The position numbers were made by a program, and so were the translations under genes. 64,000 bases of DNA. It comes from Okamejei kenojei. Lineage: Eukaryota. The stretch is taken from NCBI GenBank assembly GCA_035221665.1, contig CM069155.1:23932001-23996000 (forward strand). The letters are read 5' to 3'. Shown one piece after another: positions 313 through 62,981 of this stretch. A model generated the notes under the pieces. It searched no databases. It was not told the origin of the DNA and saw nothing but the letters and a program-made list of their open reading frames with translations. How positions within the stretch are numbered: the stretch's first letter is position 1; each line of letters starts with the position of its first letter.

Positions 313-426
313 ATGAACAAACGTGAAGAAAGTCTGAAGAAGGGTCTCGACCCGAAACGTCACACATTCCTTCTCGCCAGAGATGCTGCCTCACCCGCTG
401 AGTTACTCCAGCATTTTCTGTCTATC
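313..426 (+). mobile_element. Short Penelope-like element (pLTR-derived) carrying a hammerhead motif
   Basis: Family sequence CTGAAGAAGGGTCTCGACCCGAAACGTCAC...GAGATGCTGCC..CCCGCTGAGTTACTCCAGCATTTT; flanked by a 10-bp direct repeat TTCCATGAGA (303-312, 427-436). Confidence 0.85.
331..364 (+). ncRNA. Minimal type I hammerhead ribozyme motif (best-preserved copy); predicted cleavage after C361
   Basis: AGT-CTGAAGA(334-340)-A-GGGT-CTCG-ACCC-GAAA(354-357)-C-GTC(359-361)-ACA: intact core boxes, helix II, GT/AC helix I base and palindromic ACGT in place of helix III. Confidence 0.75.
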
Positions 427-453
427 TTCCATGAGAGCAAGTTTTATTCCATA

Positions 454-481
454 CTAGACCAAGTGGGACCCGTTGGGTCCC
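454..481 (-). mobile_element. Helitron-like 3' terminus; the element probably extends rightwards into the GC-rich 480-1100 segment
   Basis: - strand reads GGGACCC-AAC-GGGTCCC hairpin, 7-nt spacer, then CTAG followed by T, the canonical Helitron end arrangement. Confidence 0.55.
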
Positions 482-1107
482 GTCCCCTCAACGCGCGGCT
501 GCGGGGGGTGTAGGGTGGCCTGCGGCATCACACGCACTAACCACCCCCCACAACCAGGGGCCGCGGCACCGGGGGGACTGGGGGGGGGGGGCTGCAGCCC
601 CTCCACTTTTTTGGCAAGACATGCTTCATAACCCGAAATTATCCGGCCCGCAGGCGTATTTTTCTCTTCTTCTGAGGACCTCCGACATCCAGAATCTCAG
701 AACAAGCGCACAGTGAGCGCGGCAAAACCAAAGATCATAGGAGCTCCGCTCTTTGATCTTTGGGTAAAACCATGATCAGCCGTGGCGGAAACCGACTGCC
801 CCCCCCCCCCCGAAAAAAACCATCCCTCCTCTCCGCTCAACGGGCAATCACGGTGCGGTTGGGATATGGGGCAGTGAACAAAGTGGTGGGAGGGAGGGAG
901 GGAGGGAGGATGGGCCCCGTGGGTCCAGAGAGTGAGAGAGAGTCGGCCCCGAGAGGGAGGGAGAGAGAAGGGGGATATATCCACCCATGCTGAGTTGGGG
1001 GATGGCCTGTATTATCCCCCAGTTATTGGAGGTCGAGTTAATAATATGCCACCCTCGCCGCACTAGGTCGCTCCCCTTCCTCACCAGGTATCCCCGGGTG
1101 ATCAGTG

Positions 1108-1243
1108 ATAAAAGGCTGGAGAAACTCAGCGGGTGCAGCAGCATCTAAGGAGCGAAGGAGATAGGCGGCCCTTCTTCAGACTGGTCGGGGATCAGGGAAA
1201 CGAGAGATATAGACGGTGATGTGGAGAGATAAAGAACAATGAA
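1108..1243 (-). mobile_element. Penelope-like pLTR fragment with the GAAA half of the hammerhead deleted
   Basis: GCTGGAGAAACTCAGCGGG...CCCTTCTTCAGACTG, then the GGGAAACGAGAGATATAGACGGTGAT block shared with 2035-2250. Confidence 0.7.
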
Positions 1244-1264
1244 ACAATGTATGGGGTCCCTTAC

Positions 1265-1490: not shown

Positions 1491-2034
1491 CTGCAGAATA
1501 AGGACGGCTCATTGAAGTTCTACAATATTGGTCAGTACACACTAGTTGCTATACACAGACAAGCATATGTCCAGAAATATTTTTTTTAATTTATTGAGAT
1601 TCTTCCCAACTGATTTTGCTTTAGATCAGAGATTTAAAGCCACTGCCTAAAAAACTAGAATTCATACCACCAGGTTTACAATTTATGTTATCATAGATAA
1701 TATCAGATTTACAGAAATGTTCTTACTACAATGATATAAGAAAATTAGTACTATATATCAGAAATGCCTTTCCAATCCAACAATTTGTATGCCTATTATT
1801 GGCAATTTGTCTTGAAGCATTAACAGCTTCTTCTACAAGACTTCTACGAGAATTGCCGTTAGTCCCATCAGTCCCTGGTAGCAGAGTTGAGCTGAAACAC
1901 TGACATCTACTTCCGTCCCCCAGTTTTTGACAATATCAATGTTATGAGTCAGATGGCACAACTCAGTTAATACAAGGTTAAATATTACTTTCCTTTTAAC
2001 AAAAGAAAGGGATTCCAAATTAAAAAAAACTAAC

Positions 2035-2250
2035 GATAGACAAAAAATGTGGGAGTAACTCAGCCGGTCAGACAGCATCGCTGGAGAGAAAGAATAGGTG
2101 ACGCTTCGGGTCAAGGCCCTTTTTCAGACTGAGTGTCAAGGCAAAGGGAAACGAGAGATATAGACGGTGATATTGAGAGATATAGAACAAATGAATGAAA
2201 GATATACAAAAAAGTCACGATGATAAAGGAAACGGTCCATTGTTAGCCAA
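2035..2250 (-). mobile_element. Penelope-like pLTR fragment with degenerate hammerhead
   Basis: - strand CTGAAAAAGGGCCTTGACCCGAAGCGTCAC plus family flanks. Confidence 0.75.
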
Positions 2251-2336: not shown

Positions 2337-2427
2337 ACAGACACAAAATGCCAGAGTAACTCAGCGGGCCAGGCAGCATCTCTGGAGAGAAGGAATGGGT
2401 GATGTTTCTGGTCGAGCCAATCTTCAG
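2337..2427 (-). mobile_element. Short Penelope-like hammerhead element with 13-bp TSD
   Basis: ACAATTACTAAAA at 2324-2336 and 2428-2440, with family sequence between. Confidence 0.85.
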
Positions 2428-3023
2428 ACAATTACTAAAAGCTTGTTTTTAATATCAAAGCTTCAGAAGTTAGCCACATTTTATTCAGACAAGATTGATG
2501 CAGTGAGTATCAGCTCCTAATTCAAATCAGTGCTTTCCCATTTTTCCAACATGTGGAATTGGAATTCTTCAACGCAGCGTTCAGCTCAGCAGCAACTCGT
2601 TCAACCGATCACATCAGACCCGGCTCCATTCTTCAGCACAATTTACTGCACACATCCACTGTACTCAATTCGAGACGCTATATATGTTGTCAGCTTGTAC
2701 ATTATCGCAGCAAAATCATGGACTTCTTTAGTTCCTTATGGTGAAAGTTTGCCAGTACCTTCATCAGGAAAGGGAGAGAAAACTCAACCTGATCAAACTC
2801 TGATCAGACTGCCGTAAAATGTCCACAGCAATTCCAATGTATCCAAAACTTGAAGAATAACAATGATTATCAGAAATAAACTTTTAAATTATCCACCATG
2901 AAAAGGTAAACGCGTCGTACCAAAACAATTAGTGATGACATTTAGCTGGAGATACGTTCAACTTTGTTGAACTCTATGCCAATGGTAGATATGAAGCTCG
3001 ACCTGAAAGGTTAACTGCTCAAT

Positions 3024-3159
3024 GATAGACACAAAATGCTGGAGTAACTCAGCGGGACAGGCAGCATCATTGGAGAGAAGGAATGAGTGACATTTCGGGT
3101 CGAGACCCTTCTTCAGACTGATGTCGATTTACGCCAGCATCTGCAGTTCCTTCCTACAC
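3024..3159. mobile_element. Penelope-like element (inverted arm plus 3' tail) nested in an older family copy
   Basis: Antisense arm 3024-3120, sense tail GCCAGCATCTGCAGTTCCTTCCTACAC; imperfect TSD AGGTTAACTGCTCA / AGGTTACCTGATCA. Confidence 0.8.
3086..3119 (-). ncRNA. Minimal hammerhead ribozyme motif
   Basis: - strand AGT-CTGAAGA-A-GGGTCTCGACCC-GAAA-T-GTC-ACT; helix I AGT/ACT perfect; helix III ATGT (CpG decay of ACGT). Confidence 0.65.
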
Positions 3160-4587
3160 AGGTTACCTGATCACCTTACCACAGATGCTGCCTGACCAGC
3201 CGAGTATTCTATTTTTTATTTTAGGTACAAATTTTTCGTCACTTGGTACGTTTATATGATGGGAGCTAAAATGTTCTCAAAAACATTTGTGGACTGTTGA
3301 ATCGAGGAACTGGAGCCGTAGAAAGTTGCTGCATTTTCCAATTCCATTCACAAAACTAACAAGGTACTATTGGAACGATAGCCAAATTCTACTTTTGTTC
3401 ATTCTGAAGACTTGGCACAAAGTCTGACACCCAAGGACCAAACAAACCTACGTTGTATTATTGTGCCCAGCAGCAGTGTTGTAATCTTAATGCATGATTG
3501 TTTTAGTTTATTATTAAATTTTTTTATAAAAAGACTGCATCAAATAGCATTTCCCACACAAAAATAAAATTATATTTATGATTACACTTTAAAGGTCTGC
3601 TGTAAAGGCGATTCATGTTCCTTTCAATATCTCCAAGTTTCACCTGCACGGGAACAATGGAGACCAAAGCCCCTTAACCATCAGATAGTCTCAGAATTGT
3701 GTCGTAGCTTTATTTTAATAATTACATTTTGAGGTCATTTTGCCTGCCGCACTTACAGCAAAGCTATTTCCCAGTGACAATGGCTGATGCTAACACGCAC
3801 GTGCTGGGTCTCAGCGTTCTACCTCCCTCATGGTTTATTCAATAACTTAGCAATTGTCAGGGTCATTTCCTACTGTTCCAAAAAGCAAACTCCACACTTT
3901 TCAAGAGATAGCTATCTATAAAATTACTTCAGTTATAGGATTATATTATTGTCATCCATAGGATCACTGCACCTCTATTGTTATAGGCAATCTATATGCA
4001 TCCATTACTTTGAAAGGCAACTGGAAGCAAGGTTGCAATTCTCAAATGCAAGAAATGTATTTCAATCACTGATCTAATGCAGAATTTATGGATGAATGTT
4101 AGTTCTAATGTAAAATTGCTCCAAGTTACACTTAAGATCCTATTTAATTCAAATGATGGAGTATTTCATGGTGTCAGCCCTGTTGTGGTGACGTGCCTGC
4201 TGTAGACAACCCACTGATATACTTTACTGGAACCGTAATGGATGAAAGGCAAAGTGCAAGGATTTTACATACCGCATTATATATTTCACTGATATCACAG
4301 CAGCGTCGCCCAGATAGCAAATGTAAGTCGCTGCCGTTCCAAGCAGGATTCAAAACAAACTTGTGGAGAGAAACCAAGTTTCGGATCACTGACCTTTCAT
4401 CTGAATGAATGAATTAATAAGTTTGAATGAATTGAATAAGAACTATTCAAACTAACCCATAACCTTCGGTTGAGGGTTATTATCGTCACGTGTACCAAGG
4501 TACAGTGAAAGGCTTTGCTTTGCATGCCAGCCAAACAGATCAGATAATGCTGGACATAAATACAACCAAGCCAAACGCTAGTACAAT

Positions 4588-4683
4588 AGATAGACACAAC
4601 ATTGCTGGAGTAACTCAGTGGGGCAGGTGGTATCTCCGGAGAGAAGGAATGGGTGATGTTTCGGGTCGAGACCCTTCCTCAGG
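4588..4683 (-). mobile_element. Penelope-like element with hammerhead motif (4651-4683)
   Basis: - strand CTGAGGAAGGGTCTCGACCCGAAACATCACCC. Confidence 0.75.
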
Positions 4684-5409
4684 TAAATAATACGCAGGAT
4701 GAAGTGGTAGATACAGAGTGCACAATTTAGTTATCAGCATTGTAGTGCATCAGCGCCATAGACAAGTTAAAGACAAAGTGCTGGGGGAAATCAGTGGGTC
4801 TGGCATCATGTGTGAAGGGAATGGACAGACGGCGTTTCGGGTTGGGACCCTTCTTCTGTTTCTCTCTCTTACTCTAGACTTTGCGTGTAAGCCACTAAGT
4901 AATTCCAGCCTTTGCTTCAGATTGCCACTATCTGAGTATTTTGCTTTTAGGGGTGAATGTTATTAAAAGAGTCTCCAGTTATCAACAGTAAAATGTATGT
5001 AGCTGGCTAAAAAGTAGCTTTGCACATAGTTGCTTCATACATATGCAGAGCTGGGGGAGGGTAGTTGGGTAAGTGCATGCCATAACTGACAAGCATTGTA
5101 TAGCTTGTCAACTGATCCTTCGTGTGGAATGAGGCACATGGATGCCTCACACAAATTAATCAGGTGTATGGTCAGACCTTGCGTTTGCTACAGCTGCTTG
5201 AGAGAGTGACACGGGCTAAAGAATCCAGAGTATAAATGTGAGCCAGGGAGTCAGAAGGTGAGGGGGAGGAGAGGGGTTTAATGATTGAGTCGAGTAAGAG
5301 CTGGCAGAATATGGTCTGCCAAATGCAGGATGTGGCCTGGGGAAGGGGAGGGGGTGGCAGAAGAAGAAACAACCTTGGCTTTCATCCGCTTTGCAAAATG
5401 TATCGGGTA

Positions 5410-5690: not shown

Positions 5691-7867
5691 TCATTGAGTT
5701 TATCGTTGAATACACAAGTACAGTGAAGAACAGGTACATTTAATATGTAAACCAGCATCTGCAGTTCTTTCCTACACAATTAAAATCTTGCTCTATTGGG
5801 AGCCAGCAAGGTACAAGATAGATTGAAATGGCTTCCTTCTATGTTGCAGTTCGCATGGTACAACCCAATGTTTGGCCTGCAGAGTATTAAAGTATTCACG
5901 GTTAAATTCCACTCTTGTCAAAAACTCGGAAATTTAGTATCAGTAGCCTGTCCAAGTGTCAGGCACCTGATATGCTTCACACGACGCAAACTCTTGGCTT
6001 CACTGCATCTGGAGTCATCCGAATTCCGGACACCAATGTCACGCCAGCAGAGGAGAGGGGCGTGCTGTGAACCGAGGAGAATGGAGATGAGGTGCAGGAT
6101 CAGCCACAACCTCACTGAAAGGTGGAGCACGCATGATGGGCCTCTATTTTGCATGTTCTAAAGTTGTCACTATGTGGCTGCACAAAACTGCACTCCATTA
6201 TCTCGGAAATCCTAACAAATCCAAGCAAGAAAAGATGGCAACAAGTCTCACTTTGTACCGGCTTGTCCTCTACACATTGAGGGATGATTTCAAGGAGTAT
6301 AAAGTGAATAAGCTGCACAAGAGTTGTCAGCACCAGTCTCCTCCACGCCTTCAATTCAGTGAGAAGCACTTATACTGGCCCGATGTGGGGCAAGGCATGC
6401 AAACCCTTTCGCCATGGAACACCTTGGACGTGGGTAAATATACACGGGTTACCTCCAGTGTTTTGGTACCAAAACTTCTGCTTCGGTCTTGATCTACATT
6501 TTGTGGTTGGAAAATGGGACAAGGATCTGCCCTATGCCAGTGAATGAAATCAGAATATTGCAACTGAGCTCTTTGTTTATTTGCAATGCAAAGGTGTCAT
6601 AGATTGTACAAATTATAAAAATATACCAGGAATAGAGCGAAGCTCCAGTTACTACACAGGCAAACATCCAGGTACAGTGTGAGCTGGTCACTGATGTAGG
6701 TCGATTTCACACCAGCAAACCGCAATTCCTTTAATCCCCATCACTTCAACACGAGGCAAAAGATGGCAGGGGTAAAGACTGCAATTCTCTTTATTATTCC
6801 CCTTTACTGTATTTCCCAAGGTTAAAGAGTGGTCTGGTTTTACCAGCGGTGCCTTGCCCTTAGCACCACACATCAATGGTCAAAAGCTACAAACTGTTCG
6901 CTGAGGTCTCACTGCGCAACAAACAACAGGGATGGATGAGATATAACAACTGTTTCAAAAAATCCTCCCTAACTATTACAGACTACAATGCAAAGATTGG
7001 GTTATTCTCTCCCATTTCTTCAAAGGCAAAAGAGACGGAAGATTCTGGAATCTGGAACCAGGAGACCAGAAAGCTAGAACTCAGTGGGTCAGCTGACGTC
7101 CTGATGTTGGGTGTGAATTGAAAACATTAACTGGCACCTTTTGCCTTCCCTGGTGCAGCCTGACCTCAGAGTTCCTCCAGCTCCCTGTTCCTGGTCCTCT
7201 GAACCCCACTTCCAGCTGTGGGCTGCGAGCTGCAGTCAGTGCTTCGAGCTGTGAACATGTCGAACGTGAAAAATACAGCTCTGTCAAACTAACGATGTTT
7301 AAATGGTATTATTAAATTTTACTAAGCAAACAGAGATAGGAGATCTTTGGGACTTGACATCGTTGCACAGTTGTTACATGTCATGATTAAACTATATGCA
7401 TCTTCACTCGATGTAGAGCGATCAATTTAGAGGGCAAGACCGAAGGCTGTGTAAATAATCAGGAGTAAAAACGTACACATACTAAATAGTCGGGAATTTC
7501 TGAGTTTTTGACAAGGGTGGAATTTAACCATGAATCATCCAGTGTGATACCCTGAAAAATATATGGACATTTCTGACAACCACAGTAACACCATCTGTAC
7601 ATTCAACAGTAATGCAAAACTGAATGAAAGATACACGCACTAACAATTTTAAAAAAATTAAATAATTGATTATAGAGCAACCCAGCTTCACAAGATGCAA
7701 ATTCTTCAATTTGAATACTTTTCTCAGGACTATTGTTTATAGAATCTTTTGATTAAGTTACTCTGTCAGGCTTTCATTACTTATAATCAAATAGGAACTA
7801 TTAATTAACAAGAAATGTGCACATTCACCCTACAATAAGGAAACGAGATTGCCCAGCACTTGTCTGA

Positions 7868-8069
7868 TAGGATGCAATTAATGATTTCACAATTTATACT
7901 CGACTCTTACTCAAGATAGACACAAAATACTGGAGTAACTCAGCGGGACAGGCAGCATCTCTGGAGAGAAGGAATCTCTGCCTGTCTGGCTCGCTGAGTT
8001 ACTCCAGTATTTTGTGTCTATCTTGAGTAAGAGTCGAGTATAAATTGTGAAATCATTAATTGCATCCTA
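7868..8069. repeat. Perfect 78-bp inverted repeat (7868-7945 / 7992-8069) overlapping a Penelope-like insertion (7915-8128)
   Basis: Arms checked base by base; insertion TSD ACTCTTACTCAA at 7903-7914 and 8129-8140. Confidence 0.95.
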
Positions 8070-8689
8070 CTCCAGCATTTTGTGTCTATCTCCAGTTTGA
8101 ACCAGCATCTGCAGTTCCTTCATACACTACTCTTACTCAATAAGCCCAAGAGATGAAGAATTGCCGAACCTTCACCAAGTTTCCCAATACAGGATGGCAG
8201 CAGCAGAAAAGGCAAGGTGAAAATCCAATCATTTTATTCTATAATCCCTCAACCAACACTGCAATGGGAACCAATGCTGCTTCTTGGGATTATCTGAAAA
8301 CAGCTTCGATCCAACAAACCTCATCGCTAGCTCCCTTGACTCTGTCGCTCTCTCTGAGTTGTCAGCCTAATTATCTCCCCTGAATCATTAGCATCCAGCA
8401 TCAAGGGATGTGGGGAGAAAGCAGGAACAGGGTACAGATTCTGGTTCCAAGGAGGATTTCAGTTCCAGGTTTAGGCTGGATAACAGTGACTGTTCACCTT
8501 GGGACAAGTTTGAGAAGCTTGATAGAGGTGAAAAGCCATAGCAGGCTTCTGTAATTGGACAGAAATTCTTCCTGTTAGGAAGGAGTGTGGGACACAAATC
8601 CAAAGTGATAACAGGTTCAAGTCGTGCTGTTTTAAATTTGACCGCTGGCTATGATGTGGACCTCACTAGCTGGAAGAGTGATGGAAACA

Positions 8690-12110: not shown

Positions 12111-12943
12111 ACTGGCGATATAATGTAATGATGGGCTGAATGGGATAGAAAGATAGAAGCCAGATAATCATTTTGTCTAACGAATGCTTAGCATAAGCAG
12201 TGAAATACATTTCAACTCTCTCTCTCTCTCTTTATCCCCCCCATTTCTCACTACAATTGCTACTTATTTCTTCCACTATAATGGGAAATTCGAGTGTGAC
12301 TGATACTCTAAGTGGCAGAACACACATTACTCGTTGTTCCATTTGTTGAAGACAATTTGTGAAACATGGCTCAGTGACTAAACACAACAAGGCACAATAA
12401 AGACTTTCCAACCAGATCTGGAAATTATGGGCGTGCTCCAGTACTAATGTGTAATCACAGCCTGGCCTTTTTTTGTACTCAATTAAAGCCCCCGCAAATA
12501 AACACCAACACAAACGGAGCTCATAATCAAATAAACACTGCCGATTACCTCACACCTATTTAACAATAGTTGGCAAATTTGGCCAGATTTCTAGCCATCA
12601 ACATCCAGGGCTAATCCCTGCTTACATTGAACCACACGATAAGCATTCAGGGTGCATCTGACTTATCACCGTCCACCCCACCTTAAATGTATTTCAATGG
12701 ACTGCACATACTGTCGTTAAACATTTTAAGAGACCCTGCATCTTCTTACAATTTTGTTTTTTTTTAAATAGAATTGTACTTTAGCCGACCCTGGTCGACA
12801 CAAATGCACCCGCCCTCCAGTGGGAACACACTGAACTGTCTCTGCGATTCCTTGGCAATCGCCTGCTACAAGCTGAGCCCGCGTCCAATAGAAAATGCTG
12901 CATTTATGTCAGTCCATTTAAAAAACAGGTTTGCACATAATAC

Positions 12944-13116
12944 TGAAGACAGACACAAAATGCTGGAGTAACTCAGCGGGACAGGCAGCATCTCTGGAGA
13001 GGGAGGGGGAGGGAATAATTCCTTCCCTCCAGAGATGCTGCCTGTCCCGCTGAGTTACTCCAGCATTTTGTGTCTCTCTTCGGTGTAAACCAGCATCTGC
13101 AGTTCATTCCTGCACA
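12944..13116 (+). mobile_element. Fold-back Penelope-like element (inverted arm, sense arm, tail) lacking the hammerhead core
   Basis: ~55-bp near-perfect inverted arms; probable TSD TTGCACAT (12931-12938, 13117-13124). Confidence 0.85.
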
Positions 13117-13188
13117 TTGCACATGAAACACATTGTCAGACGTGTCTGTATCCTCAACACCATCGACACGCATGTCGCATCCACTTAC

Positions 13189-14270: not shown

Positions 14271-14278
14271 GTTCTCAC

Positions 14279-15184: not shown

Positions 15185-15392
15185 GAGACAGACAAAAAAA
15201 GCTGGAGTAACTCAGCGCGTCAGACAGCATCTCTGAAGAAAAGGAATAGGTGAAGCATGTCCCAATTAGAAGGAAGGATCCCAACCCAAAACGTCTCTTA
15301 TCAATGTGCTCCAGAGATGTAATAACAAGGAACTGCAGATGCTGGTTTATACCAAAGAAAAACACAAAATACTGAAGTAACACAACAGGTCA
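15185..15392. mobile_element. Penelope-like pLTR pieces, continuing at 15643-15737 after a CR1 insertion
   Basis: Family arms and tail; degenerate hammerheads at ~15268-15297 (+) and ~15675-15708 (-). Confidence 0.7.
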
Positions 15393-15642: not shown

Positions 15643-15737
15643 AGGTCAGGCTGCACCCCTGGAGAACATGGATAGGTGACATATTGGGTTGGGACCTTTC
15701 TTCAGACTGATATCCAGAGGTGTTGCCTGACTGCTGA

Positions 15738-17807: not shown

Positions 17808-18013
17808 AAAATACACAAAGTGCTGGACTAACTCAGTGGGTCAGGCAGCATCTCTGGAGAACATGGATTGGTGACAGGAGCCTTCAGTCTGAAGAGTCCC
17901 GATCCGAAACGTCACCTATCCATGTTCTCCAGAGATGTTGCCTGACCTACTGAGTTACTGCAGCACTTTGGATCTTTTTCTGTAAACCAGCATCTGCAGT
18001 TTTATGTATCTCC
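17808..18013 (+). mobile_element. Fold-back Penelope-like element with hammerhead motif at 17886-17916
   Basis: Inverted arm to 17875, then AGTCTGAAGAGTCCCGATCCGAAACGTCACC and tail. Confidence 0.8.
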
Positions 18014-18286
18014 ATATTCGTTAAACTATGACTCAGACCTATATAAACCAAAACAGGATTTGGTTCAACCATCTTGGGTGTACTTCTTTCACTGACATTT
18101 AAATTCACATGATATGTACATGTAAAATAATGTCAAACAGATGGATGCTTCAAAATCAAATACTGATCCAAAAACAAGAGACACTCCCAAGGCTGCAAAC
18201 CAACTTTCCACTCACTGAGCCCACCTTGAAACAGTGTGCTCTACCTGCTAAGTTTGCCTTTTGCGGACATCTCTCATCACTAGCCA

Positions 18287-18457
18287 TGTGTAGGAAGGAG
18301 CTGCAGATGCTGGTGTACACTGAAGATAGACACAAAATGCTGGAGTAACTCAGCGGGACAGGCAACATCTCTGGAGAGAAGGAATGGGAGACGTCACCCA
18401 TTCGTTCTACCCAGAGATGCGGCCTGTCCCGCTGAGCTACTCCAGCATTTTGTGTCT
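18287..18457 (-). mobile_element. Fold-back Penelope-like element centred on the hammerhead ACGT
   Basis: GGAATGGGAG-ACGT-CACCCATTC centre (18391-18394); TSD TCTCTCATCACT (18270-18281, 18455-18466). Confidence 0.85.
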
Positions 18458-18827
18458 CTCATCACTCGCTATCGCCATCGTGTGCTGACCTTCTCCAATA
18501 CTGCCCACTCCATCTGCAGCCACAGGCCCACACTCAACCATGTCGCCACTTCCCCGGTGCAGACGGGCAAATCTTTTACACTTGCCTGCACATCCTTTCA
18601 CAATGATACTGGCCCATCACAAGGGTGAGAAAGCTTTCTGAACCTCCAAGGCTAAGAGAATGATGTGCTTCAAGTAAGAGGAAGTGTAAGGTCTGTAGAT
18701 GCACACTGCCATGGACAAATCCCCAGAGCATGAATAAATCGATCGCAGGGGCTGACGGGAAACAAGGCAGGAGATTCCTGTGTCTCGGCCAGAGACTGCT
18801 ACGTCATCTACGGTGAGGGACTGCAAG

Positions 18828-19533: not shown

Positions 19534-20574
19534 ATTGTCAGACAAAGACCAATTACAGAAATCTTAAAGCATTGTATTCTTAATGTTCAGCTTTGAAAAC
19601 ATGAAAACGTGACTGTAAATGAAATAAAATATAATTTCACATCCCAAACCACACTGGTTTAAATATCCATTAATGCTGCTCAAAAGCACCAGCCGCATCA
19701 GATTTGTGCTTAATCTAAAACTTCCGACTCAGAGAATAGGGAGCCACTGACCCAAGCCAGCACTCACAAAGGGTTATAACATTCAGGCAGATTGTGGTAT
19801 GCTTCATGAGTTTAGTTGGTACCATCTGCTTTTCTAAAATATGTTTTTGCAATAAGCATGATTAAGCATGTCCCTTAAAGTCCAAAGAGTATTTAATTGT
19901 TGTCCTCGTGTGACTGGGGAATATAATTATAACAAAAAGGATCGTTCAACAAACTTCTCAAATCTGCCTATTTCTGAACAGGATGTCACACACCATTAGT
20001 TTTGCAAGATTGTGCAAGCCTTATGAAAACAGAGCCAAAGAGTTTACTGTCTAGATGCTAGTGCTTGCTGGTTGAGTGATTTAGACCTGGCACCTACTTA
20101 TCTACAGTCGTGACACCATATGCAGGCAAGAAAACAGCGCAGAGACAAGCTACAGTAAGATGGTGCGTTTTCAACTAATTTCCATGCAAAAGGTGCTTTG
20201 TAAATCAGAATGAAAGGCATTCGGTTATTTTAGCACAAATTTCCTCATGTTCATCCCGTGAAGGAAGGTATCTCCTTCCCCATCGCCCCACCATGCACCT
20301 CCACCCAAACCCTTCTTCCTGTTACCCTCCCACCTCACACTCATCCCATGCTGAAATATGCTTACTGGCTGAATCATCTTCATTAATTGTTTTCAAACGA
20401 TAGACAGTGCATTGAAAACAAACCAGGAACTGTGTACATCTATTCCAGATGCACCCCTTTAGAAGCATTGATGAGACAATCCAAACCTAGGGCAGGAAGT
20501 ACCGCATAGGGGAATATTCCAGTATTCGGAGGCAGCCCCCTTGCATATTGGAGAATTCGACATGCAAGCCGCTG

Positions 20575-20880
20575 GATAGTTACAAAAAGTTGGAGTAACT
20601 CCGCGGGGAGAGGCAGCATCTCTGGAGAGAAGGAATGGGTGACTTTTCGGGTCGAGATCCTTCTTCAGACCGGGTTGTGAGCTATCCAAGCGGAATATGA
20701 GGTGCTGTGGCCTCACGCTGGCAATGGAGGAGGCCCAGGACGGAAATTGACAGCGTGGGAATGGGAAGGGGAGTTAAAATTGTGAGCGACTGGGAGATCC
20801 AGCAGGCCTGGGTGGGCGGAGTGCAGGTGTGTGGCAAATCAATTGCTTAATCTGCACTTGGACTTGCCAATGTGAAGGAG
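20575..20880 (-). mobile_element. Penelope-like element fragment: degraded GIY-YIG endonuclease C-terminus followed by hammerhead (20638-20672) and pLTR end
   Basis: - strand LLHIGKSKCRLSN*FATHLHS...DLPVAHNFNSPSHS/SVLGLLHCQREAT/QHLIFRLDSSQPG, then GGTCTGAAGAAGGATCTCGACCCGAAAAGTCACC. Confidence 0.85.
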
Positions 20881-22165
20881 GGCACTTTGAGGGAAATGAT
20901 GATTCTTTGGAAAAGCGCAGGTGCCGGGTTTCCCTGCTGCTTGACCTGCTCCACTGTACAAAGCACACTTCCGGAGTTCACTGCATACACATGAATTAGA
21001 TTCAAGGACGGGATATGAATGGTGCACTGCCCAAAGACTGCAGACACCTCCGTGGTCTCTGTGTGTTTGTGTGTGTACATGGATTACACGAGCAGAACTC
21101 ATTACATGGTAGCTTTTGATTAGATTTAATGATCCATTTTTCCTACAATTTCATCGCATGTTGCATGGAAAATAAAACTGCAATGTGATTAAATTGCTGG
21201 AACAAATGCGATGCTTTTAACTGATTATTATTATGTACTTTATTTTATAAATTAGAATGTTAAATAGCATTTCTCGGCAGAGTTTTCACCGGTTATTAAA
21301 ACAGATCTTGCTTGATTTCAGCCTAAATTCCTTTATGCAAATCTCGAAATCCCAAATCTGCCATGAACTAATGCAATAAGCAAGAGGGTTTAGAATCTCT
21401 TTCAACTGACTGGCTTACTGGTTACTGTGGAAGAGCAGGAAGCTGCTGCTGCTTTATTTGGAGTGTTCACAAAATAAACAGCCCCGGTCCATGTCTCTTC
21501 CACCTCCTGAGAGTCAAACAATTTTAAGCAATTGAACATGATCATGAAACAATGTCACCCAGCAGTTAGCTGGTTAGATTGGTGTAAAGCAGTCAATTTC
21601 TTGCTAGATTTGAATTATTAAAATTGCCTATGTCAATGAACTTGTCCCTAAATAACTAATAGCCATCAGGCTCATTTATCATTTCTTATTTTGTATACAG
21701 AGTACTGTGTTTACAGATTCTGTTGCGCTGCTGCAAGTAAGAATTTCATTGTTCTGTTCAGGACATTTGACATTAAAACACATGCCTCGTTCAGGCTTTC
21801 AGCATCATTAAAACAGCACAAACGCACTCTGGTGACTATGTTGATTTGAGGACCTCTCTAACTTTGCGGCTGGGGCCAATCAATTGCTTCATCTGCGATG
21901 ATGACCCAGGTATCCAAAGTCCACTCAATGGAACTCGTGCAGTGGTTCCTTGGGTTTGGCCAATTGCATGTGGCTTGCGGCAAGACGCAACAACTGAGTG
22001 GTGAATGATCATCACTTTTCATCCTTGTCTTGATGTTGCCCTTTTCGCTAACCACTCTCTCCCAAAGGAGTGTGCACCATGTTCCACAACATGGCAACGA
22101 CGGTGATCCAAGTCTCTCTGGAATCTCCATGATCGTTCTTTGATTGTTTACTCAGCACAAATCTT

Positions 22166-27849: not shown

Positions 27850-28150
27850 TTGAGGTGACTTAGCAGGTCAGGCTGCCTCTGTGGAGGGAATGGACGGACC
27901 ATGTTTCGGGTCAGGACCTTCCTCTGACTGACCGGGGAAGGGGTGAGAAAGCTGGAAAAGAGAGGGAGTTTGGCAAAGTCTGGCAAGTAATAAATGGATA
28001 CAGGTGAGGGGGGGGGGGGGGGGGTTCGCAGAAGGGTGGAGTAAATGACAAAGGCTAAATAATCCCTCCTCCAGCTTTACATTTCATTCCTCCTCTTCTC
28101 TGTCTATCTGATATTTGTTCCCATTTCACCTCCAGTCACTTAATCCAGCC
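27850..28150 (-). mobile_element. Old Penelope-like pLTR fragments
   Basis: TGTTTCGGGTCAGGACCTTCCTCTGACTG degenerate hammerhead plus purine-rich pLTR body. Confidence 0.6.
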
Positions 28151-35867: not shown

Positions 35868-36060
35868 TAGGAAGGAACTACCTAGGTAGATGCTGGTTTA
35901 AACCGAAGATGGACACAAAAAACTCAGTGGGTCAGACAGCATCTTTGGAGAAAAGGAATAGGTGACGTATCGTTTCGGGTTGAGACCCCTCTTCCGTCTC
36001 CTATTCCATTTCTCCAGAGATGCTGCCTGACCCGTTGAGTTACTCCAGCTTTTTGTGCCC
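35868..36060 (-). mobile_element. Fold-back Penelope-like element with partial hammerhead
   Basis: Inverted arms; flanking direct repeat GTTCCTGTTG (35856-35865, 36067-36076). Confidence 0.8.
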
Positions 36061-38434: not shown

Positions 38435-38570
38435 AGCAAAACACAAAACGCTGGAGGAACTCAGCGAGTCAGGCAGCATCTGTGAACGGAACGGATAGGT
38501 GACATTTCCGGTCAGGACTATTCTCGAGATGCTCAAGATTCCGGCATCTGCAGTTTCTTGTCTCCACACG
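38435..38570. mobile_element. Older Penelope-like element (inverted arm plus tail)
   Basis: GCTGGAGGAACTCAGCGAGTCAGGCAGCATC...GGTGACATTTCCGGTCAGGAC...GCATCTGCAGTTTC. Confidence 0.7.
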
Positions 38571-39089: not shown

Positions 39090-39400
39090 CTGCCACCCCA
39101 TTTCCCACCCCCTGAGTCCATCTGCTCACCCTCCTCCCTGTCTGCCTCCACCTATCACCTCCCAGCCTTGGTCCCAAACTCCCCACCTGACTTGCTTGCA
39201 TTTGCCCATCATACCTTTCCCATCCGGCTCCACCTATTACCTACCACTTGCCCCATCCCCTACCCCTGGTGACCGATCCTGCCCCCTCTCAGTCGATGCA
39301 GGGTCTCAACCTGAACCATCAGACCCTACTTTCTGCCTCTACGGATGCTGCCCAGCCAGCTGAGTTCTTCCACTGTTCTGTTTATGTTCTCGATTCCAGC
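39090..39400 (+). mobile_element. Old Penelope-like pLTR
   Basis: Pyrimidine-rich body, CAGTCGATGCAGGGTCTCAACCTGAA degenerate hammerhead, GATGCTGCC...GCTGAGTTCTTCC. Confidence 0.6.
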
Positions 39401-41611: not shown

Positions 41612-41705
41612 CTCAAACAAGGGTCCTGACCTACAACGCCTCCTCCCCATGTCCTCCAGAGTTGCTGCCTGACCCACTGAGTTGCTCCAGCACGTTGTGT
41701 TCTGT
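41612..41705 (+). mobile_element. Degenerate Penelope-like hammerhead element
   Basis: AAGGGTCCTGACC...CCAGAGTTGCTGCCTGACCCACTGAGTTGCTCCAGCAC. Confidence 0.65.
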
Positions 41706-44499: not shown

Positions 44500-44870
44500 C
44501 TTCCTCTGACCTCACAGCTTACTACTTTTTTATCCTTATCTGACACCCTGTTGTCTACTTCTACCCCGGCCTATGCATGTCCACCCATCTGCCAATCTAT
44601 CTCCCCCACCTGTATCCACCTATCACTTGCCAGGATTTGTTCTGCTACCACCATTATTTTCCCATTTTCTCCCCCCACATCAGTCTGAAGAAGGGTCCCG
44701 ACTGGAAATGCCGCCTATCCACGTCCTCCAGAGATGCTGCGTAACCCGCTGAGTTACTCCCGCACTTTGTGTCTTTTGCTCTCGACCTGAAACATCGACC
44801 ATCCACAGATGCTGCCTGGCCCACTGACTCCTCCAGCAGTTTGTTTTTTTTGCTCTGGTTTCCAGTCTCT
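44500..44870 (+). mobile_element. Penelope-like pLTR with hammerhead motif (44682-44714) next to an older family copy
   Basis: CAGTCTGAAGAAGGGTCCCGACTGGAAATGCCGCC, then a second CTCGACCTGAAACATCGAC. Confidence 0.75.
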
Positions 44871-45867: not shown

Positions 45868-46060
45868 TGGAGATACAGATGCCGGAATCTGGAGCAAGAA
45901 ACAAACTGCTGGAACAGGTCGAGTGGCACCTGTGGGGGAAGGAACGTTTCAACGTTTCGGGTCGAGCTCCTGCATCGAGACTGAGCGTGGGGTGGGAAGA
46001 CAGCCAGTATAAAGACGAGAAGGAACAGGGGTGAAAGGCCGGTAGGTGATAGGTGAAACA
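45868..46060 (-). mobile_element. Old Penelope-like pLTR
   Basis: ACGTTTCGGGTCGAG hammerhead remnant with tail. Confidence 0.6.
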
Positions 46061-48962: not shown

Positions 48963-49058
48963 TAGTCCGATGAAGGGTCCCGACACGAAATGGCAGCTGC
49001 CCATTCCCTCCCCGGATGCTGCCCTACACACTGAGGTCCTGCAGTACTTTTGTGTTTA
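48963..49058 (+). mobile_element. Degenerate Penelope-like hammerhead element
   Basis: AGTCCGATGAAGGGTCCCGACACGAAATGGC. Confidence 0.6.
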
Positions 49059-50400: not shown

Positions 50401-50539
50401 CAGTCTGAGGAAGGGTCCTGACCTGATCCAAATCGCCACCTTATCCATGTTCTCCAGAGATGCTGGCTGACCCGCTGAGTTACTCCAGTACTTTATGTCT
50501 TCTTTTGTAAACCAGCATCTGTAGTTCCTTGTTTCTACA
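50401..50539 (+). mobile_element. Penelope-like element with damaged hammerhead and tail
   Basis: CAGTCTGAGGAAGGGTCCTGACC...GTAAACCAGCATCTGTAGTTCC. Confidence 0.75.
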
Positions 50540-51479
50540 AATGAATGGAAGAATACTCGAGGGTTGTAAATCCCATGAGAGGTTTATGGGATCGCTCCTG
50601 GGTGTTGCCAATCTCACCTCCGGCTACACAAAATGTGGGAAGGAGGGAGACTGACCAGTCAATACAATAAAGAAGCAAAGTCCAGCAGTGCTGAAAGTGT
50701 TTGCCATAACTACTGGATTGAATGATACTGTGTATGAATTACAATGGAGAGTGAGTGTTTCAGCTGGGTGCTTTACTAGGATGGTGGCACCAAGGGTTAT
50801 GACTGCGATGGCTGTAATGATGGCAGGATGCATTAAAGATCATGTTACAACGAGGAGCCTCCAGCAAAAAACAATACTCGTACTGTGCCTTTAAAGCAAT
50901 AACATGCCCCCAAGGTCAGGGAAACAACCCAAAAGCAGAGAAAATCCAGACTCACAAAACAGCAGCAAAAGTCAGAAGAGATGGTAACATAGTAAAGGGT
51001 GTTCATGAGGGTGAATGTATTGAAGTTAAAGTGTTGGGACCATGGGAAGCACATGGGTACAAGTGCCGAGTACTGAGTGGGAAGGGAAATAACCAGTGAG
51101 GTCCTGGATGAGTGTCTGTAGTGAATGACATGGGATGTTGCCAAGCACAGCACTGGAAGATTCAGATGTCATGAGGAAGAAGCTGTGAATAAAGATCTCA
51201 GCAGATGCAGAAAGAGGGTAGGGTGTGACCACGTGATGTTTTGGAGGCTGAGGTACTCTGTGATAAATTGGCTGTGGAAATATAGATTCAAATTTTATCT
51301 CGTGCAATGAAATTCCTTGTCCTTATGATGCATCCCAGAGTTGAAAGTACACATGGTAATGATAAATAAAGTAGTATTTCTCATCACCTTGTATATTGGC
51401 ATTTGGTTTATTATTGGCATGTGTACCGAGATACAGTTTAAAGCTTTGTTTGTGTGCTATCCAGTCAGACCACACAAGA

Positions 51480-52550: not shown

Positions 52551-52726
52551 GAATTCAGCAGGTCACTCTGCCTCTGAGGAAAAGAAACAGTTACCATCTC
52601 AAGTCCAGGACGTTAGTGAGCAACAGAATGCATCTTTTATTCTCCTTAACAATTCCCTCACTTCAGCATAATGTGATGCCTACAACCACAATCTTGTGCC
52701 CTCTAATACTTTGCCCAGTAAAGCAC

Positions 52727-52790
52727 GTCAGGCAACATCCCTGGAGTTCACGGATAGGTGACGGTTTGAGTCAGGACCCTTCTTCAGACT
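52727..52790 (-). mobile_element. Penelope-like hammerhead fragment
   Basis: GGATAGGTGACGGTTTGAGTCAGGACCCTTCTTCAGACT. Confidence 0.65.
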
Positions 52791-58774: not shown

Positions 58775-59350
58775 GGTTGTCATGGAGTCAAACAGCATGG
58801 ACACAGGAGCATCGGCCCAACCTGTCCACGCTGACTAAGATGCAACGTTCAAGCTGGTTCCATTTACCTGCTCCCAGCCCATGTCCCTCTAAACCAGGGG
58901 TTCTCAACCAGGGGGGAATTCCCCCCCAGGGGGGGAATTTCAGGTTTTCAGGGGGGGAATTGGGACCACAGATTAGCAAACTCAAACTGTTAGAAATAAA
59001 GGATTTTCAGTATTATATGCATAATATTTGGAATGCACTTTTTGAGGCAGACAATCTTGGAAAGGAGGGGAATGACATTCTGACATATGGTGAAAGGGGT
59101 GCATGGGGCAAACAAGGTTGAGAACCACTGCTCTAAACCTTTCTTATCCACGTACCTGCTCAAATGTTGTTATTGTACTTGCCTCGACTACTTCCTCTGG
59201 CAGCTCGTTCCATATACCCACAACTCTGGAGTGAAAATGTTGCCCTTCAGGTCCCTCTCACCTTAAGCCTAAGCCCTTGAGTTCTTGATTCCCCTCCCTG
59301 GAGAAAAGACTGAGCATTCATCCTGTCAACTGCCCTCATGACTTTATACA
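58775..59350 (-). mobile_element. CR1 3' fragment interrupted by a hAT MITE
   Basis: CR1 sequence is continuous on both sides of 58895-59130. Confidence 0.8.
58895..59130. mobile_element. 236-bp non-autonomous hAT (Charlie-like) DNA transposon
   Basis: TIRs CAGGGGTTCTCAACC / GGTTGAGAACCACTG (14/15 match); 8-bp TSD CTCTAAAC (58887-58894, 59131-59138). Confidence 0.9.
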
Positions 59351-60749
59351 TGTGTGAGCATTTGGACCCTATTTGGATAACCTTGTGCATGGAGAGAAGA
59401 ACAAGGAAGGCCAGCCATATTGCTGTGATCCAGCTTTGAAGGAAGTTTCAAGGGCTTTGAGCCTTAGCCAAGTGCTGAATCGGGCAATGTTATGAAGCGA
59501 AAAGAGACGCTCTTGATGATGGTGCGGATTCACGATCTGAGCCTAATTTCTGGAACAAATATATAACAAGATTTAACGAAGCAGATCCAGAGAAGTGCAA
59601 GGTATGGGATGGAATCACAATTGAAGGCACATTCCGAATGGCTCAGAGGCGCTTGTACCATGAAGACAGTCAGTATAATATTTGTGGCCTCCTCCTGCAC
59701 CTATTTGCTATGTTTCTATAATAACGAGTAATAGCTTTAATGGCGATCGTAGATATACAGAAAAACATGATTTAATAAATCGGTATTACTTGCCATGTCT
59801 GTACAAATGGAGGGCCACAGGTCAGGGAACTGCCAATCCAAACAAATGATGCCAGATTTTTAACGAGGGGCAGAGACCGAACTAAGGTGGGAGATGGGTC
59901 GGGGAAGGGAATAGATGGTACTTCAAGGAAGTGAGATCGATACAAGGAAGTGTTGCGATGGTGCTGTGATTGAGCAGGTTTGAAAAGTGAGATAGCAAGC
60001 CCAAGGAAACAACTGTGAATACAGGATGGAGAGTTAAAGTGGAGGAAAAACATAGGTAGGAGGGAGGTGGATAATAAGATCAGCGGACATGACAGGGCAG
60101 CGAGCAGAGTGATTGAGCCCGCAGTTCTGATCACAATAATAATGCAACACTTCCTGTACATCTGATTATGCTTCCCACACATATTAACTTTAAGGCTTGC
60201 ATTTTAGCTAATTTTCTCCTTGCATCTATGTTCCTAATTCTACATTAGAATGTTGACTTTTCTTTTCAATTATTATCCTTATTGTACAAATATTTACATA
60301 TAGCTTCAAATGATATTTGAACCCTTTAAATCCAGGGCACTCCAGTCTGGAATTCATTCCTTATTTGCCCTCCCCTACAATATACTTGACCTCCTTTTTT
60401 ACCTCCTTTTAAAAGTTTGATCTTAGTTTTCCTTCCTCTTGCCTGCAAAGTGTAGTGACTGAATCCCTTCTATTACTGATCATTGCATTAAATTACTTTT
60501 CTCTGCAAAGTTTTAACTCTTTGTGGGGATGTGGTTCCAAAGGCATCAGATGAACTTCCATTCCTTATTTATGTTTACTAAGATCACATGAATGTTTTGC
60601 CTCCATGTAGAGTGCCCATGGGCCAGGGATCCTCAGGAGGCAGTGGGGGAAGGTGCATTTCTTCCATGGAGCTCATAGTATTGAATCTGTTTCTCCTGTA
60701 GCCCTGGTAATGTCTTCCCATGACAGGGCTTGCAATAGGTGCTTCAGGA

Positions 60750-60865
60750 GTCATATAGTCACAGTGTCATACAGCATGGAAACAGGCCCTTCTGCCCAAC
60801 ATGCCCATGCCTGACCAGGATGTCCCAACTACGCCAGTCCCACCTGCCCGTGTTTGGCCCACATT
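60750..60865 (-). mobile_element. CR1 3' tail fragment
   Basis: CATGGAAACAGGCCCTTCTGCCCAAC...TTTGGCCCACAT. Confidence 0.7.
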
Positions 60866-62787
60866 CCACTTTCAAAAAGGAAGGAGTCTGGTGTCAGACA
60901 TACGAATGGCATCATGTGCTCAACAAAGCTGAGGGGGTGCCGCTATGAAACCAGACTGGATGTAAGTCATCCTCGATCCCGAGCGGTTGCCTGAGGAGAA
61001 GGTTGCAGCAGTCTGCCCGTTACAGGGACCCTTGTAGTCAATCTGATGCTGTCAACTGACCCTGACTGGTATTAACCTACGTGAGCACTGCTTGTAGACT
61101 GAAACTCAAAACCTCCTGGTCTGTCTGATTCAGGCACTCGTTGACTCAACCCACAGAATTGCCATTAGAATATTAGAATCAAATCATAACAACAGCCCAG
61201 AAGAGACATCTCACAATGTGACCCTGTGGAAACATAAAGGACTCGTCAGGAATTATGTTGCCTCGTGCAGCACTGGAGTCAGACATGCTCTAGAGGGTTA
61301 ATTCTAAATCCCTTGAGTTTACATTACTGTTGAGGTTTGCCATTAAAATGTGAACTGTTCACTCATTTATTCTGCAATGCTATCTAATGAGAGCTAATTA
61401 ACTTATACAAACATATGAATATTACTCACACGTACACCAACTCTCTCAAAGGACACTTGAATCCCATCATGTTTATAGCAAGCCTTTTTTTTGTAATTAT
61501 TTATTTGAGATTCCTTATTAATATGCAGAGACATTGTAAAGGAGCTGACTTGGAGAGTACTCTGAAGTGACAATCTGGTGGCAAGTGCAAATCCCGTCTT
61601 TATTTGATGAACGCACCAATTAAGAACATGCTCAGACTAACGGCGGTGAAGAGCAGGTCTGCAGAGCACAAGCTGTGACTGTTTGTACTACGACTGGGAG
61701 AAATGAAGGCAACGACCCCCTGGGAAAACCTGCCAGCAAAGTCTCTTCCTTCCAGCTCAGTGCCACCCTGATGGATCTGCTGCCTGCCTACTCCCCTCCC
61801 AGAGAGGGCATAAGCCGAGCCCGACCGACCAACGCCGTTTATCATCAATCGGACACGGTGCAGTTACAGGGGTGGCCTCTCCCTTCCTGGGTGGGGATAT
61901 GATGCAACAAGAGGCATCACTTGGTGACTTGTTAGCTCGGGAAATATAAATCTTTCTGGGCAGTTCGACAGCACGGTGATGGATCAAACCAATTAGCACC
62001 ATTTTCATCACAGGCCTCTCATGGAGTGCAGAGAGACTTTGATTCAGCCACCAGTTGAAAGTTAGTTTGCTTGATTGTGTAGAGTGTGTGTTTTCAAAGG
62101 AGCGCAGCTGGAGATTTACACTGCCTCTTCAGTTCCTGGCCCCAGGGGCTCAATGCGATAGTTTAACGCAACAAAATATGAGAGCTGCCATCAATGCAGA
62201 TGACGCTTTATAATTCATGGGGATTTATAGGCTGCATTCCTGCCAATCTAGAGACGCTTTTAGTGACAATTGATTGCGGTATGATTAGCTCCAGGGAACA
62301 GATTCCATGCCAAGATTATTTTTGCAACAGCCGGGAAGAAATCAATAGTTTAATATTAATTGACAGCCAGGCGAAGTCCACACATGTGAAGTATTGCCAT
62401 ATTTGAAAAACCCCAATAATATTTAGGTTTACTCTATCCTTTAACTATCTTCCCCAGCAGGAGATGAAAACAAGTTTCCCGGCTCGGTTGTTAATCATTC
62501 GAGCTGCTGTGGTTTGGTGGCTCGGAGATATGAAGCCTTCCTATCTTGGGGTTATAGCACTGAAAGAGCACAGCACTAAGTTTTGTTCCAATTAAGTGTA
62601 TTCCAGTGAGTGGCTCTGCATTTGTATCTCTAACCTCCGCGATGCTCCAGCTTCCAGGCCCCAGTAGGGTTTCAGACAACACAGGTCATTACTCTGTGCA
62701 GCAGCTTCTGATATGATTTAAATTGCCCAAGCAGCTCTAATGGCAGCGTATCTTTCTGGCACAGCTCTGCTGCAGGGAGCCCACCAC

Positions 62788-62981
62788 TAGGAAGGAACTG
62801 CAGATGATGGTTTAATCCGAAGATAGACACAATAAGGTGGAGTAACTCAGCGGGACAGGCAGCATCTCTGGAGAGAAGGAATGGGTGACGTTTTGGGTCG
62901 AGACCAAGGGTCACTCACCCATTCCTTCTCTCCAGAGACGCTGCCTGTCCCGCTGAGTTACTCCAGCTTTTTGTGTCTATC
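62788..62981 (-). mobile_element. Fold-back Penelope-like element with partial hammerhead
   Basis: Tailed arm 62788-62905, inverted arm 62915-62981. Confidence 0.85.

Follow-up and report, generated by a model that had tools for sequence, protein, structure and literature searches.

Short hammerhead-bearing repeats in the skate Okamejei kenojei as probable terminal pieces of a Penelope-like retrotransposon

A stretch of 64,000 nucleotides from the skate Okamejei kenojei (contig CM069155.1, positions 23,932,001 to 23,996,000, hereafter the window) is crowded with short copies of a repeat that carries a hammerhead ribozyme motif, and the question it raises is whether these copies form a non-autonomous retroposon family in their own right, as a first-pass annotation of the DNA proposed, or are pieces of a larger element. 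Scanning the window with an HMM built from its own copies returned 46 segments at E<1 and 41 at E<1e-3, the latter making up 28 loci that occupy 3,649 bp, or 5.7% of the window, and the resulting density of about one locus per 2.3 kb is slightly higher than the roughly one copy per 3 kb that had been claimed. The reality of the family is borne out by the controls, in that the reversed window gave no HMM match, ten block shuffles gave four in total with a top score of 5.8 bits, and no control match reached E<1e-3; a family copy was present at each of the six coordinates quoted as best preserved, and both the high abundance of the repeat and its derivation from Penelope are supported. No published account of the family was found in the literature, Repbase and Dfam lying outside that search, and exact-pattern scans of viral contigs and metagenome contigs, collections not expected to contain fish DNA, gave no match. 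The window has 332 open stretches of at least 62 aa, and the 150 that were searched against Pfam matched no family, so that no host gene was identified. In read mapping, the depth of the element bins was about 4e4 times that of unique bins (run X2), a repeat-swamped figure that is not a copy number, and several insertions appeared common to four organisms, in mapping that was likewise swamped by repeats and gave no view of empty sites.

The majority sequence reads CUGAAGA-A-(4-bp helix II)-GAAA-C-G-U-C, which bears out the annotation of a minimal type I hammerhead with a helix III that is unable to close as a monomer. A close comparator is the min-HHR of metazoan Penelope-like pseudo-LTRs (Cervera and De la Pena 2014, PMC4209133), which has the same CUGANGA-H core, the same unpaired base between 9 and 10.1, G10.1-C11.1 and palindromic 15.2-16.2 with no loop III, and which also occurs mostly as single dispersed motifs from truncated elements; the fugu, cichlid, lamprey and Xenopus rows of Fig. 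S3 in that paper are also C-G-U-C. The two features that had been pointed out as odd, a palindromic helix III without a loop and an additional A after A9, are the published minimal-hammerhead consensus, and the motif, being already known, adds little as a ribozyme. In the window the extra A is found between 9 and 10.1 in 19 of 21 rows, G10.1-C11.1 is present, and ACGU, with no loop III, is the majority helix III, intact in 7 of 24 segments. The family differs from the typical published motif in having a helix I of 2 bp rather than 4-5 bp, a length that PMC4209133 also records in D. virilis, Culex and Oikopleura, and in its short helix II of 4 bp. Cartilaginous fish are absent from Table S1 and Fig. 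S3 of PMC4209133, where min-HHRs number thousands per genome, and the density of one locus per 2.3 kb looks far above the 4,000-9,000 motifs per genome given there, a count of intact motifs only.

In the case of individual copies, the statement that many retain the motif does not stand. The core letters are kept in 5 of the 24 segments that cover them, and core, ACGU palindrome and 4-bp helix II occur together in one of the 24, the sole complete minimal hammerhead motif, at 334..361 on the plus strand (core, extra A, 4-bp helix II, ACGU helix III), which has a helix I of 2 bp and a predicted cleavage site after C361, position C17 of the 331 copy, as annotated. Five of the six copies named as best are damaged, with palindromes that read AUGU at 3116, ACAU at 4682 and AAGU at 20668, a 3-nt deletion in the copy at 17889, and the loss of U16.1 in the copy at 44685. 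Helix I, which the flanking bases had been expected to form, is just 2 bp in most copies, with a third pair in 2 of 18 rows, and its first two pairs have a predicted pairing probability of 0.001 in the best copy. Helix II is 85.9% paired across the alignment, with predicted pairing of 0.84-0.99 when flanks are included, and when 331-429 is folded alone an alternative fold beats it; the whole unit folds no better than shuffles (z 0.10 and -0.32), and an Rfam search returned no hammerhead family among 31 matches at E<=10. Divergence from the window consensus runs from 3 to 30%, with a median of 15%, CpG changes affect core G12 in 5 of 23 rows, and after insertion the copies likely decay like neutral DNA. 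Given an already published motif that a single copy here keeps intact, the family amounts to a plentiful but mostly unremarkable genomic fossil.

The most diagnostic features of the family are a tail and a set of inverted loci, both absent from the first-pass annotation. The 3' ends of the 41 segments fall at +84 to +101 (23 segments) or at +114 to +134 (13), with five earlier and none at +102 to +113; the modes lie near +94 and +131, and the difference of about 37 nt between the groups is the tail, which carries the unit that far beyond the 3' end previously assigned to it. Ten of the 28 loci are head-to-head inverted, and in seven of them just one arm has the tail. The tail is only on the plus arm at 12942..13119 (8-bp TSD) and at 17813..18001 (8-bp flanking repeat), where the minus arm begins within helix III, whereas it is the minus arm that is tailed at 18286..18463 (12-bp TSD), where the arms join on the helix III ACGT, at 35868..36057 (10-bp TSD), where the plus arm runs from helix III, and at 62788..62981, where the plus arm resumes at helix III. 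At 3024..3160, a locus with a 10-bp TSD containing one mismatch and a small additional fragment at 3179-3205, the minus arm has the hammerhead without a tail and the plus arm is the tail alone; both arms are tailed at 29980..30134, and at 38441..38560 a minus copy is accompanied by an inverted tail-only arm that is a weak HMM match (E 0.66) visible in the sequence. Complex inverted loci are found at 7868..8127, where two arms are accompanied by a third, tailed piece and by flanking DNA that is duplicated in inverted orientation, and at 15186..15392, which has three pieces and adjoins a LINE-type tail repeat.

Solo copies show the same ends. The copy at 331..429 (plus) has no tail and has a 10-bp TSD (303-312 / 427-436), with 18 unassigned bases between TSD and unit on its 5' side, and that at 2339..2429 (minus) has a 13-bp TSD (2324-2336 / 2428-2440); the copy at 4588..4682 (minus) begins at C3 and has a mutated palindrome, that at 4764..4856 (minus) is divergent and older, that at 33999..34059 (minus) begins in helix III, that at 41616..41700 (plus) is divergent, that at 48964..49058 (plus) is old with an 8-bp TSD, and that at 50401..50541 (plus) is tailed. 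There are also a short copy at 52717..52790 (minus) with an 11-bp TSD containing one mismatch, a 3'-truncated copy with a mutated core at 15644..15711 (minus), and a fragment that is tail only at 5748..5778 (plus). Exact flanking direct repeats of at least 8 bp occur at 7 of the 28 loci (8, 8, 8, 10, 10, 12 and 13 bp), compared with 2.1% of 756 mismatched flank pairs, which upholds the annotated TSDs. The accompanying view of insertion as short units is right for only some of the copies, as 6 of the 21 that reach the core extend 50-250 bp upstream into pyrimidine-rich sequence (72-82% Y). The 5'-extended copies lie at 1110..1243 (minus), with helix II deleted and an upstream portion in common with the copy at 2027..2195 (minus), which has a mutated core; at 27855..28040 (minus), an old copy whose upstream part is pyrimidine-rich; at 39118..39389 (plus), the oldest, 30% from the window consensus; at 44580..44844 (plus), followed in the same direction by a second partial copy without the CUGA half; and at 45876..46055 (minus), old and with a partial tail.

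A comparator for this anatomy is provided by the EN+ PLEs, probably Neptune (Arkhipova 2013, PMC3846280; Craig 2021, PMC8557442; Poseidon of Anolis, Frangieh 2024, PMC11167929). The family has in common with them 5'-truncated copies, head-to-head pseudo-LTRs containing the hammerhead, TSDs of about 8-13 bp, and a tail of 30-40 bp that may be present at one end. Among shark and skate proteins, related ORFs show a cysteine linker ahead of the GIY-YIG domain. Inverted head-to-head copies with a tail on one arm and TSDs of 8-10 bp are described there for Penelope (PMC3846280), the 30-40 bp tail is described as peculiar to PLEs and as a sign of two RT start sites (PMC11167929; PMC8557442), and strong 5' truncation is given as the PLE norm (PMC8557442). 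The family differs from them in that the window has no coding copy and most copies are shorter than 200 bp, and in a two-spot pile-up of 5' ends in the hammerhead, a description of which was not found in the available portions of PMC3846280, PMC8557442 and PMC11167929. We consider it probable that the 28 loci are pieces from the termini (pseudo-LTRs) of a Penelope-like retrotransposon of sharks and skates, one that probably belongs to the Neptune clade and whose own RT and endonuclease probably copied them; such pieces account for most of the anatomy, and the distinct non-autonomous family originally proposed is not borne out.

Under the proposed mechanism, the GIY-YIG endonuclease would nick the target with a stagger of 8-13 bp, and the RT would start inside the RNA at either of two sites about 37 nt apart, which would give copies with or without the tail. 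The RT would mostly halt after 60-130 nt, most commonly at or just beyond the hammerhead, and head-to-head loci might form either by copying of both nicked strands or by fold-back. The hammerhead would be inherited from the parent element, where cleavage would depend on dimerisation or on help from a protein, and insertion would not require it.

The link to the parent element is indirect, as it is made at the protein level and in other species. The window holds no full-length element or RT remnant, and a profile of eight Penelope proteins matches only the 3' end of a GIY-YIG endonuclease ORF of Penelope-like type at 20546..20886 (minus), broken by one stop and frameshifts; this remnant is interrupted by the solo copy at 20575..20670 (minus) and is the insertion target of that copy, not its upstream ORF. 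The relatives of this remnant were found by phmmer, with 52-60% identity to shark and skate proteins, and all six of the named ones are shark or skate records, which lends indirect support to the annotated elasmobranch host; a word-based protein search with the 50-aa remnant and a Pfam search gave no match, and Atlas gave no usable one. The top phmmer match, P0001, was dropped as a repetitive false match. The cysteine linker between RT and endonuclease is visible in P0007 and P0012-P0016, which are relatives rather than the proven parent. P0012, from the zebra shark Stegostoma, contains Penelope-type RT and endonuclease parts followed by about 120 low-complexity codons, and its C-terminal peptide is identical to the family translation at 8 of 10 positions, a match that is weak alone (E 0.002 in a tiny database). 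It is also the sole protein of 15 compatible with a minimal-hammerhead descriptor, with which 2 of 100 shuffles are compatible, and its match agrees with the family in the length of helix II and in the CG palindrome. In P0020, the family and tail are followed by endonuclease sequence (E 2.7e-7), and this is one of 17 family-containing proteins, the other 16 being without Penelope sequence. N-terminal peptides of P0004 and P0005 that resemble the family were discounted, with scores of 24.0 and 24.4 against shuffle maxima of 24.0 and 22.8.

Random 5' truncation of a parent element would leave the position of the 5' ends unaccounted for, in that 15 of 21 copies begin between -5 and +6 relative to C3, a 12-nt interval, chosen post hoc, in which 10% would be expected. 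The boundary near C3 is set independently by a TSD or a known target in five solo copies (331, 2429, 20670, 48964 and 52790), and 7 of 30 starts fall at helix III, which is above chance, six of them in inverted loci. The 5' ends pile up immediately ahead of the core and on the palindrome of helix III, and never at the cleavage site. The fixed boundary, and the count of 28 loci against one ORF remnant in 64 kb, would suit a distinct non-autonomous master RNA that measured about 95-131 nt, came from the pseudo-LTR, began shortly upstream of the hammerhead and was mobilised in trans by the Penelope enzyme; the boundary matches an initiator-like pattern and also a pyrimidine tract and CAG splice acceptor, and the D. 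virilis Penelope intron ends 5 nt before C3. We nonetheless regard such a master as unlikely, since the six copies that continue upstream include both young and old sequence types, heavy 5' truncation is usual for PLEs, and an identical pile-up would be expected if, on the parent RNA, the RT stopped or transcripts began at this point. The short copies also have no upstream exon in common, and a spliced template was rejected for now on this account.

More doubtful again is the suggestion that a hammerhead without a usable helix I serves as a pairing and stop signal, not as a cutter, such that two template RNAs would be paired via ACGU, a dimeric Penelope RT would copy one of them per nicked strand, and the cDNAs would meet at the palindrome, which would make the head-to-head insertions the footprint of a double-hammerhead dimer. 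The arms of the locus at 18286..18463 are centred exactly on ACGT, and if this suggestion were true the dimer footprint would be readable in very many skate copies.

The family can also be compared with the non-LTR retrozymes (Cervera and De la Pena 2020, PMC7229834; Li, Clavereau and Pollet 2026 preprint), which are likewise short, non-coding and hammerhead-bearing, originate in pseudo-LTRs, include dispersed monomers, and have been reported in one chondrichthyan with a mean unit of 363 bp (Li et al. preprint). That the copies arose in this way, from tandem units through paired-hammerhead cutting, circularisation and re-insertion, is very improbable, however, as the window has no tandem head-to-tail array of the unit and shows inverted pairs instead, the sole direct pair (44580-44844) is missing one half of its second core, no circular permutation was seen, and the motif is minimal and not canonical. 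The ends appear to be fixed by RT start sites and not by the cleavage site, with none of the 41 segments beginning at the cleavage product position +29, and insertion of self-cleaved RNA was rejected on the same count. That the host maintains the copies as working ribozymes is scarcely credible, since the lower mismatch of the core (10.9% vs 18.0% downstream in the same 19 rows; Fisher p 0.018, per-column test p 0.068) disappears against a conserved downstream block (13.2%) and thus reflects subfamily differences, 23 of 24 segments are broken, and in the covariation test that the annotation had itself named no measure beats shuffles (94, 165, 117, 79 and 29 of 500 reach the observed value, with low power from 18 decayed rows).

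Penelope insertion is poorly understood, and, with terminal pieces of a Penelope-like element as the preferred reading, the family supplies countable TSDs, tails, inversion points and 5' stops. A genome-wide skate tally of these could test in vivo the internal-priming model, which was derived in vitro from one lizard enzyme, and could also test whether the hammerhead must cut at all. The family is of some concern to annotators as well, because its copies have been translated into spurious proteins (17 matches) and its hairpins of 100-200 bp match microRNA models below threshold; the sub-threshold miRNA-type Rfam matches at 12967, 18354, 35927 and 62841 are all inverted loci of this family.

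The repeat family is real and dense, as the first-pass annotation had claimed. A profile HMM built on 15 copies from the window returned 46 segments there at E<1, and after the five with E above 1e-3 were removed prior to counting, 41 (E<1e-3) were left that make up 28 loci and 3,649 bp, or one locus per 2.3 kb; BLAST of the window with the copy at 325-432 gave 36 matches. The reversed window yielded no matches to the profile, and 10 block shuffles yielded four, none scoring above 5.8 bits. At 7 of the 28 loci the copy is flanked by exact direct repeats of at least 8 bp, compared with 2.1% among 756 mismatched flank pairs, and with one mismatch permitted the repeats reach 10 bp at 7 of 28 loci against a background of 2.0%, so that the 8-13 bp target-site duplications (TSDs) that had been proposed are also real. 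Segments of at least 55 columns (32 in number) differ from the window consensus by 3-30%, with a median of 15%. Contigs from four runs, representing four organisms, extend out of unique flank into copies common to all of them (1-352, 1-353, and 1-358, for instance, all reach copy 331), which places several insertions before the splits of these organisms. In one read run, element bins are ~4e4-fold deeper than unique bins, a depth ratio that does not equal copy number.

Counting with C3, a core position of the hammerhead, as +1, the 3' ends of the 41 segments form two groups, with 23 at +84 to +101 and 13 at +114 to +134; the interval separating the groups holds no ends, and the remaining five lie earlier. 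Head-to-head loci account for 10 of the 28, with the optional tail of ~37 nt on a single arm in seven, on both arms in one, and two being complex; the arms within one locus are 87-97% alike (seven pairs). The earlier description of the family, correct in recognizing a genuine repeat, had missed both the tail and the inverted loci. Upstream continuation is found in 6 of 21 core-reaching copies and is of two sequence types, both pyrimidine-rich. The family resembles Penelope-like elements (PLEs) in its inverted arms, one-end tail, and TSDs, the typical PLE combination described in PMC3846280 and PMC8557442 being an inverted 5'-truncated pseudo-LTR (the terminal piece of the element), a 30-40 bp tail at one end, and a TSD of 8-10 bp. 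At the inverted locus 7868-8127, ~45 bp of flanking host DNA is duplicated in inverted orientation (7868-7912 versus 8025-8067) and is followed by a third piece with a tail, which looks like a fold-back into the target during insertion.

The 5' stop lies at -5 to +6 of C3 in 15 of 21 copies, against 10% predicted from background stopping, though the 5'-end windows were picked post hoc and arms of inverted loci supply 5 of the 15 stops. In five solo copies the C3 boundary is fixed independently by a TSD or a known target. The boundary sequence matches an initiator-like pattern, and it also fits a pyrimidine tract with CAG. In Penelope of D. virilis, an intron end lies at 491 (PMC2377424) and C3 at 496 (PMC4209133 Table S1). 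A second group of starts, at +21 to +27, comprises 7 of 30 starts versus 4% expected and lies within or just 5' of the ACGT palindrome; six of the seven belong to inverted loci as arms. In one head-to-head locus the two arms meet at 18388-18394, where they share the helix III ACGT. Palindromes at inverted junctions have been noted before and were read as self-priming (PMC3846280). No segment starts at +29, the position expected for self-cleaved RNA.

The column majority of the aligned window copies reads CUGAAGA, an extra A, helix II (4 bp with a tetraloop), and GAAA-C-G-U-C. Core letters are intact in 5 of the 24 segments spanning the motif, and only the copy at 334-361 (1 of 24) combines them with ACGU and a full four-pair helix II. 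Of the six copies put forward in the first-pass annotation as the best, five are damaged. An A replaces G12 in 5 of 23 rows, helix III position 15.2 is altered in 6 of 23 rows and position 16.2 in 5 of 24, and these motif losses are typical CpG decay. Among 19 core-spanning rows, core letters mismatch at 10.9% and downstream sequence at 18.0% (Fisher p 0.018; 0.068 when tested per column). However, the mismatch rate in the conserved downstream block is 13.2%, so the lower core value stems from differences between subfamilies immediately 3' of the cleavage site. In an alignment of 18 copies, helix II pairing amounts to 85.9%, and for helix I the first and second pairs each form in 13 rows, the third in 2; the covariation check suggested earlier, run on these copies, did not exceed shuffles by any measure. 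ViennaRNA pairing probabilities for the best copy with flanks are 0.84-0.99 for helix II and 0.001 for helix I, and when 331-429 is folded alone the core pairs instead with downstream pyrimidines. An Rfam scan of the window returned no hammerhead match. The oldest copies (39289, 45984, 48964, and 44780) differ at helix I positions, some with G for A after C17, the predicted cleavage nucleotide, and their ancestor may have had a longer helix I, although decay is too advanced to decide.

The loop-less helix III and the extra A, which had been singled out as odd features, were already published for minimal hammerheads, which Cervera and De la Pena defined in 2014 as having no loop III, being palindromic at 15.2-16.2, and carrying a conserved base that separates 9 from 10.1 (PMC4209133). 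The C-G-U-C of the family is identical to that of their fugu, cichlid, lamprey, and Xenopus rows, and Table S1 and Fig. S3 of PMC4209133 contain no cartilaginous fish. The Schistosoma minimal hammerhead was uncleaved as a monomer and weakly cleaved as dimers (PMC4209133).

A broken 3' end of a Penelope-type GIY-YIG endonuclease is present on the minus strand at 20546-20886, with a family copy inserted into it and no recognizable pseudo-LTR behind it. Seven of eight phmmer matches to this remnant are Penelope-type endonuclease pieces of 52-60% identity, and the four named matches are from whale shark (three) and little skate (one); a longer-protein search gave five matches with RT and weak GIY-YIG matches, two of them named, from Stegostoma and Chiloscyllium. 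These homologies indirectly support an elasmobranch host. The Stegostoma protein P0012 continues for ~120 codons beyond the endonuclease, and its terminal peptide is 8/10 identical to a family translation; of 15 proteins, it alone fits a minimal-hammerhead descriptor, with a single match that sits at the extreme end and has the geometry of the family, while 2 of 100 shuffles are compatible anywhere. By the criterion of PMC8557442, the cysteine linker in these Penelope-type proteins suggests Neptune. Through gene callers, 17 database proteins contain a family translation, and these family-derived proteins are probably spurious; in one of them, P0020, endonuclease sequence directly follows the tail, and in the other 16 none was found. 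Because the window contains neither an RT remnant nor an ORF-linked family copy, and only P0020 among the 17 shows endonuclease, a link between the family and a Penelope-type parent element is likely rather than proven. In the younger sequence type (331-429 and related copies), one frame is open across the whole unit, including the tail.

We consider it probable that a Penelope enzyme inserts copies from internal RT start sites, that RT would stop early at the hammerhead, and that the inserted copies would then decay neutrally. For an Anolis element, PMC11167929 describes a tail located between two internal RT start sites, extension on both target strands, a protein required for hammerhead cutting, and in vitro insertion that proceeds without such cutting. 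Mobilization by the same Penelope enzyme of a separate short non-autonomous master is a distinctly less probable origin. A retrozyme, a class reported in one chondrichthyan by the Li et al. 2026 preprint, fits poorly and is improbable, and host co-option, also a poor fit, is scarcely credible. The literature searched yielded no description of hammerheads in a Penelope family of sharks or skates, and a term search of the little skate genome paper did not find the word Penelope; the family is new, or at least poorly described, though it may well be present in Repbase or Dfam and may be listed in the Li et al. supplements.

In many contigs of all four runs, family 3' ends (3160, 5778, 8091, and 8120) are joined to the short tandem tail of a LINE at 8829, and also at 15392-15420; a preference for such targets could explain this, as could simply the high number of copies of the two repeats. 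The LINE 3' fragment itself, at 8850-10162 on the minus strand (RVT_1 match, E 4.5e-19), is presumably CR1-like, and related pieces lie at ~15400-16150, 19280-19540, 56660-57040, and 63070-63380. A second dispersed family, probably a tRNA-derived SINE, occupies 5421-5501, 8699-8830, 31413-31577, 38815-38914, 43007-43156, 48076-48399, and 52215-52547. Finally, within 13941-14700, pyrimidine-rich tandem repeats are followed by a GC-rich stretch that may be a promoter island.
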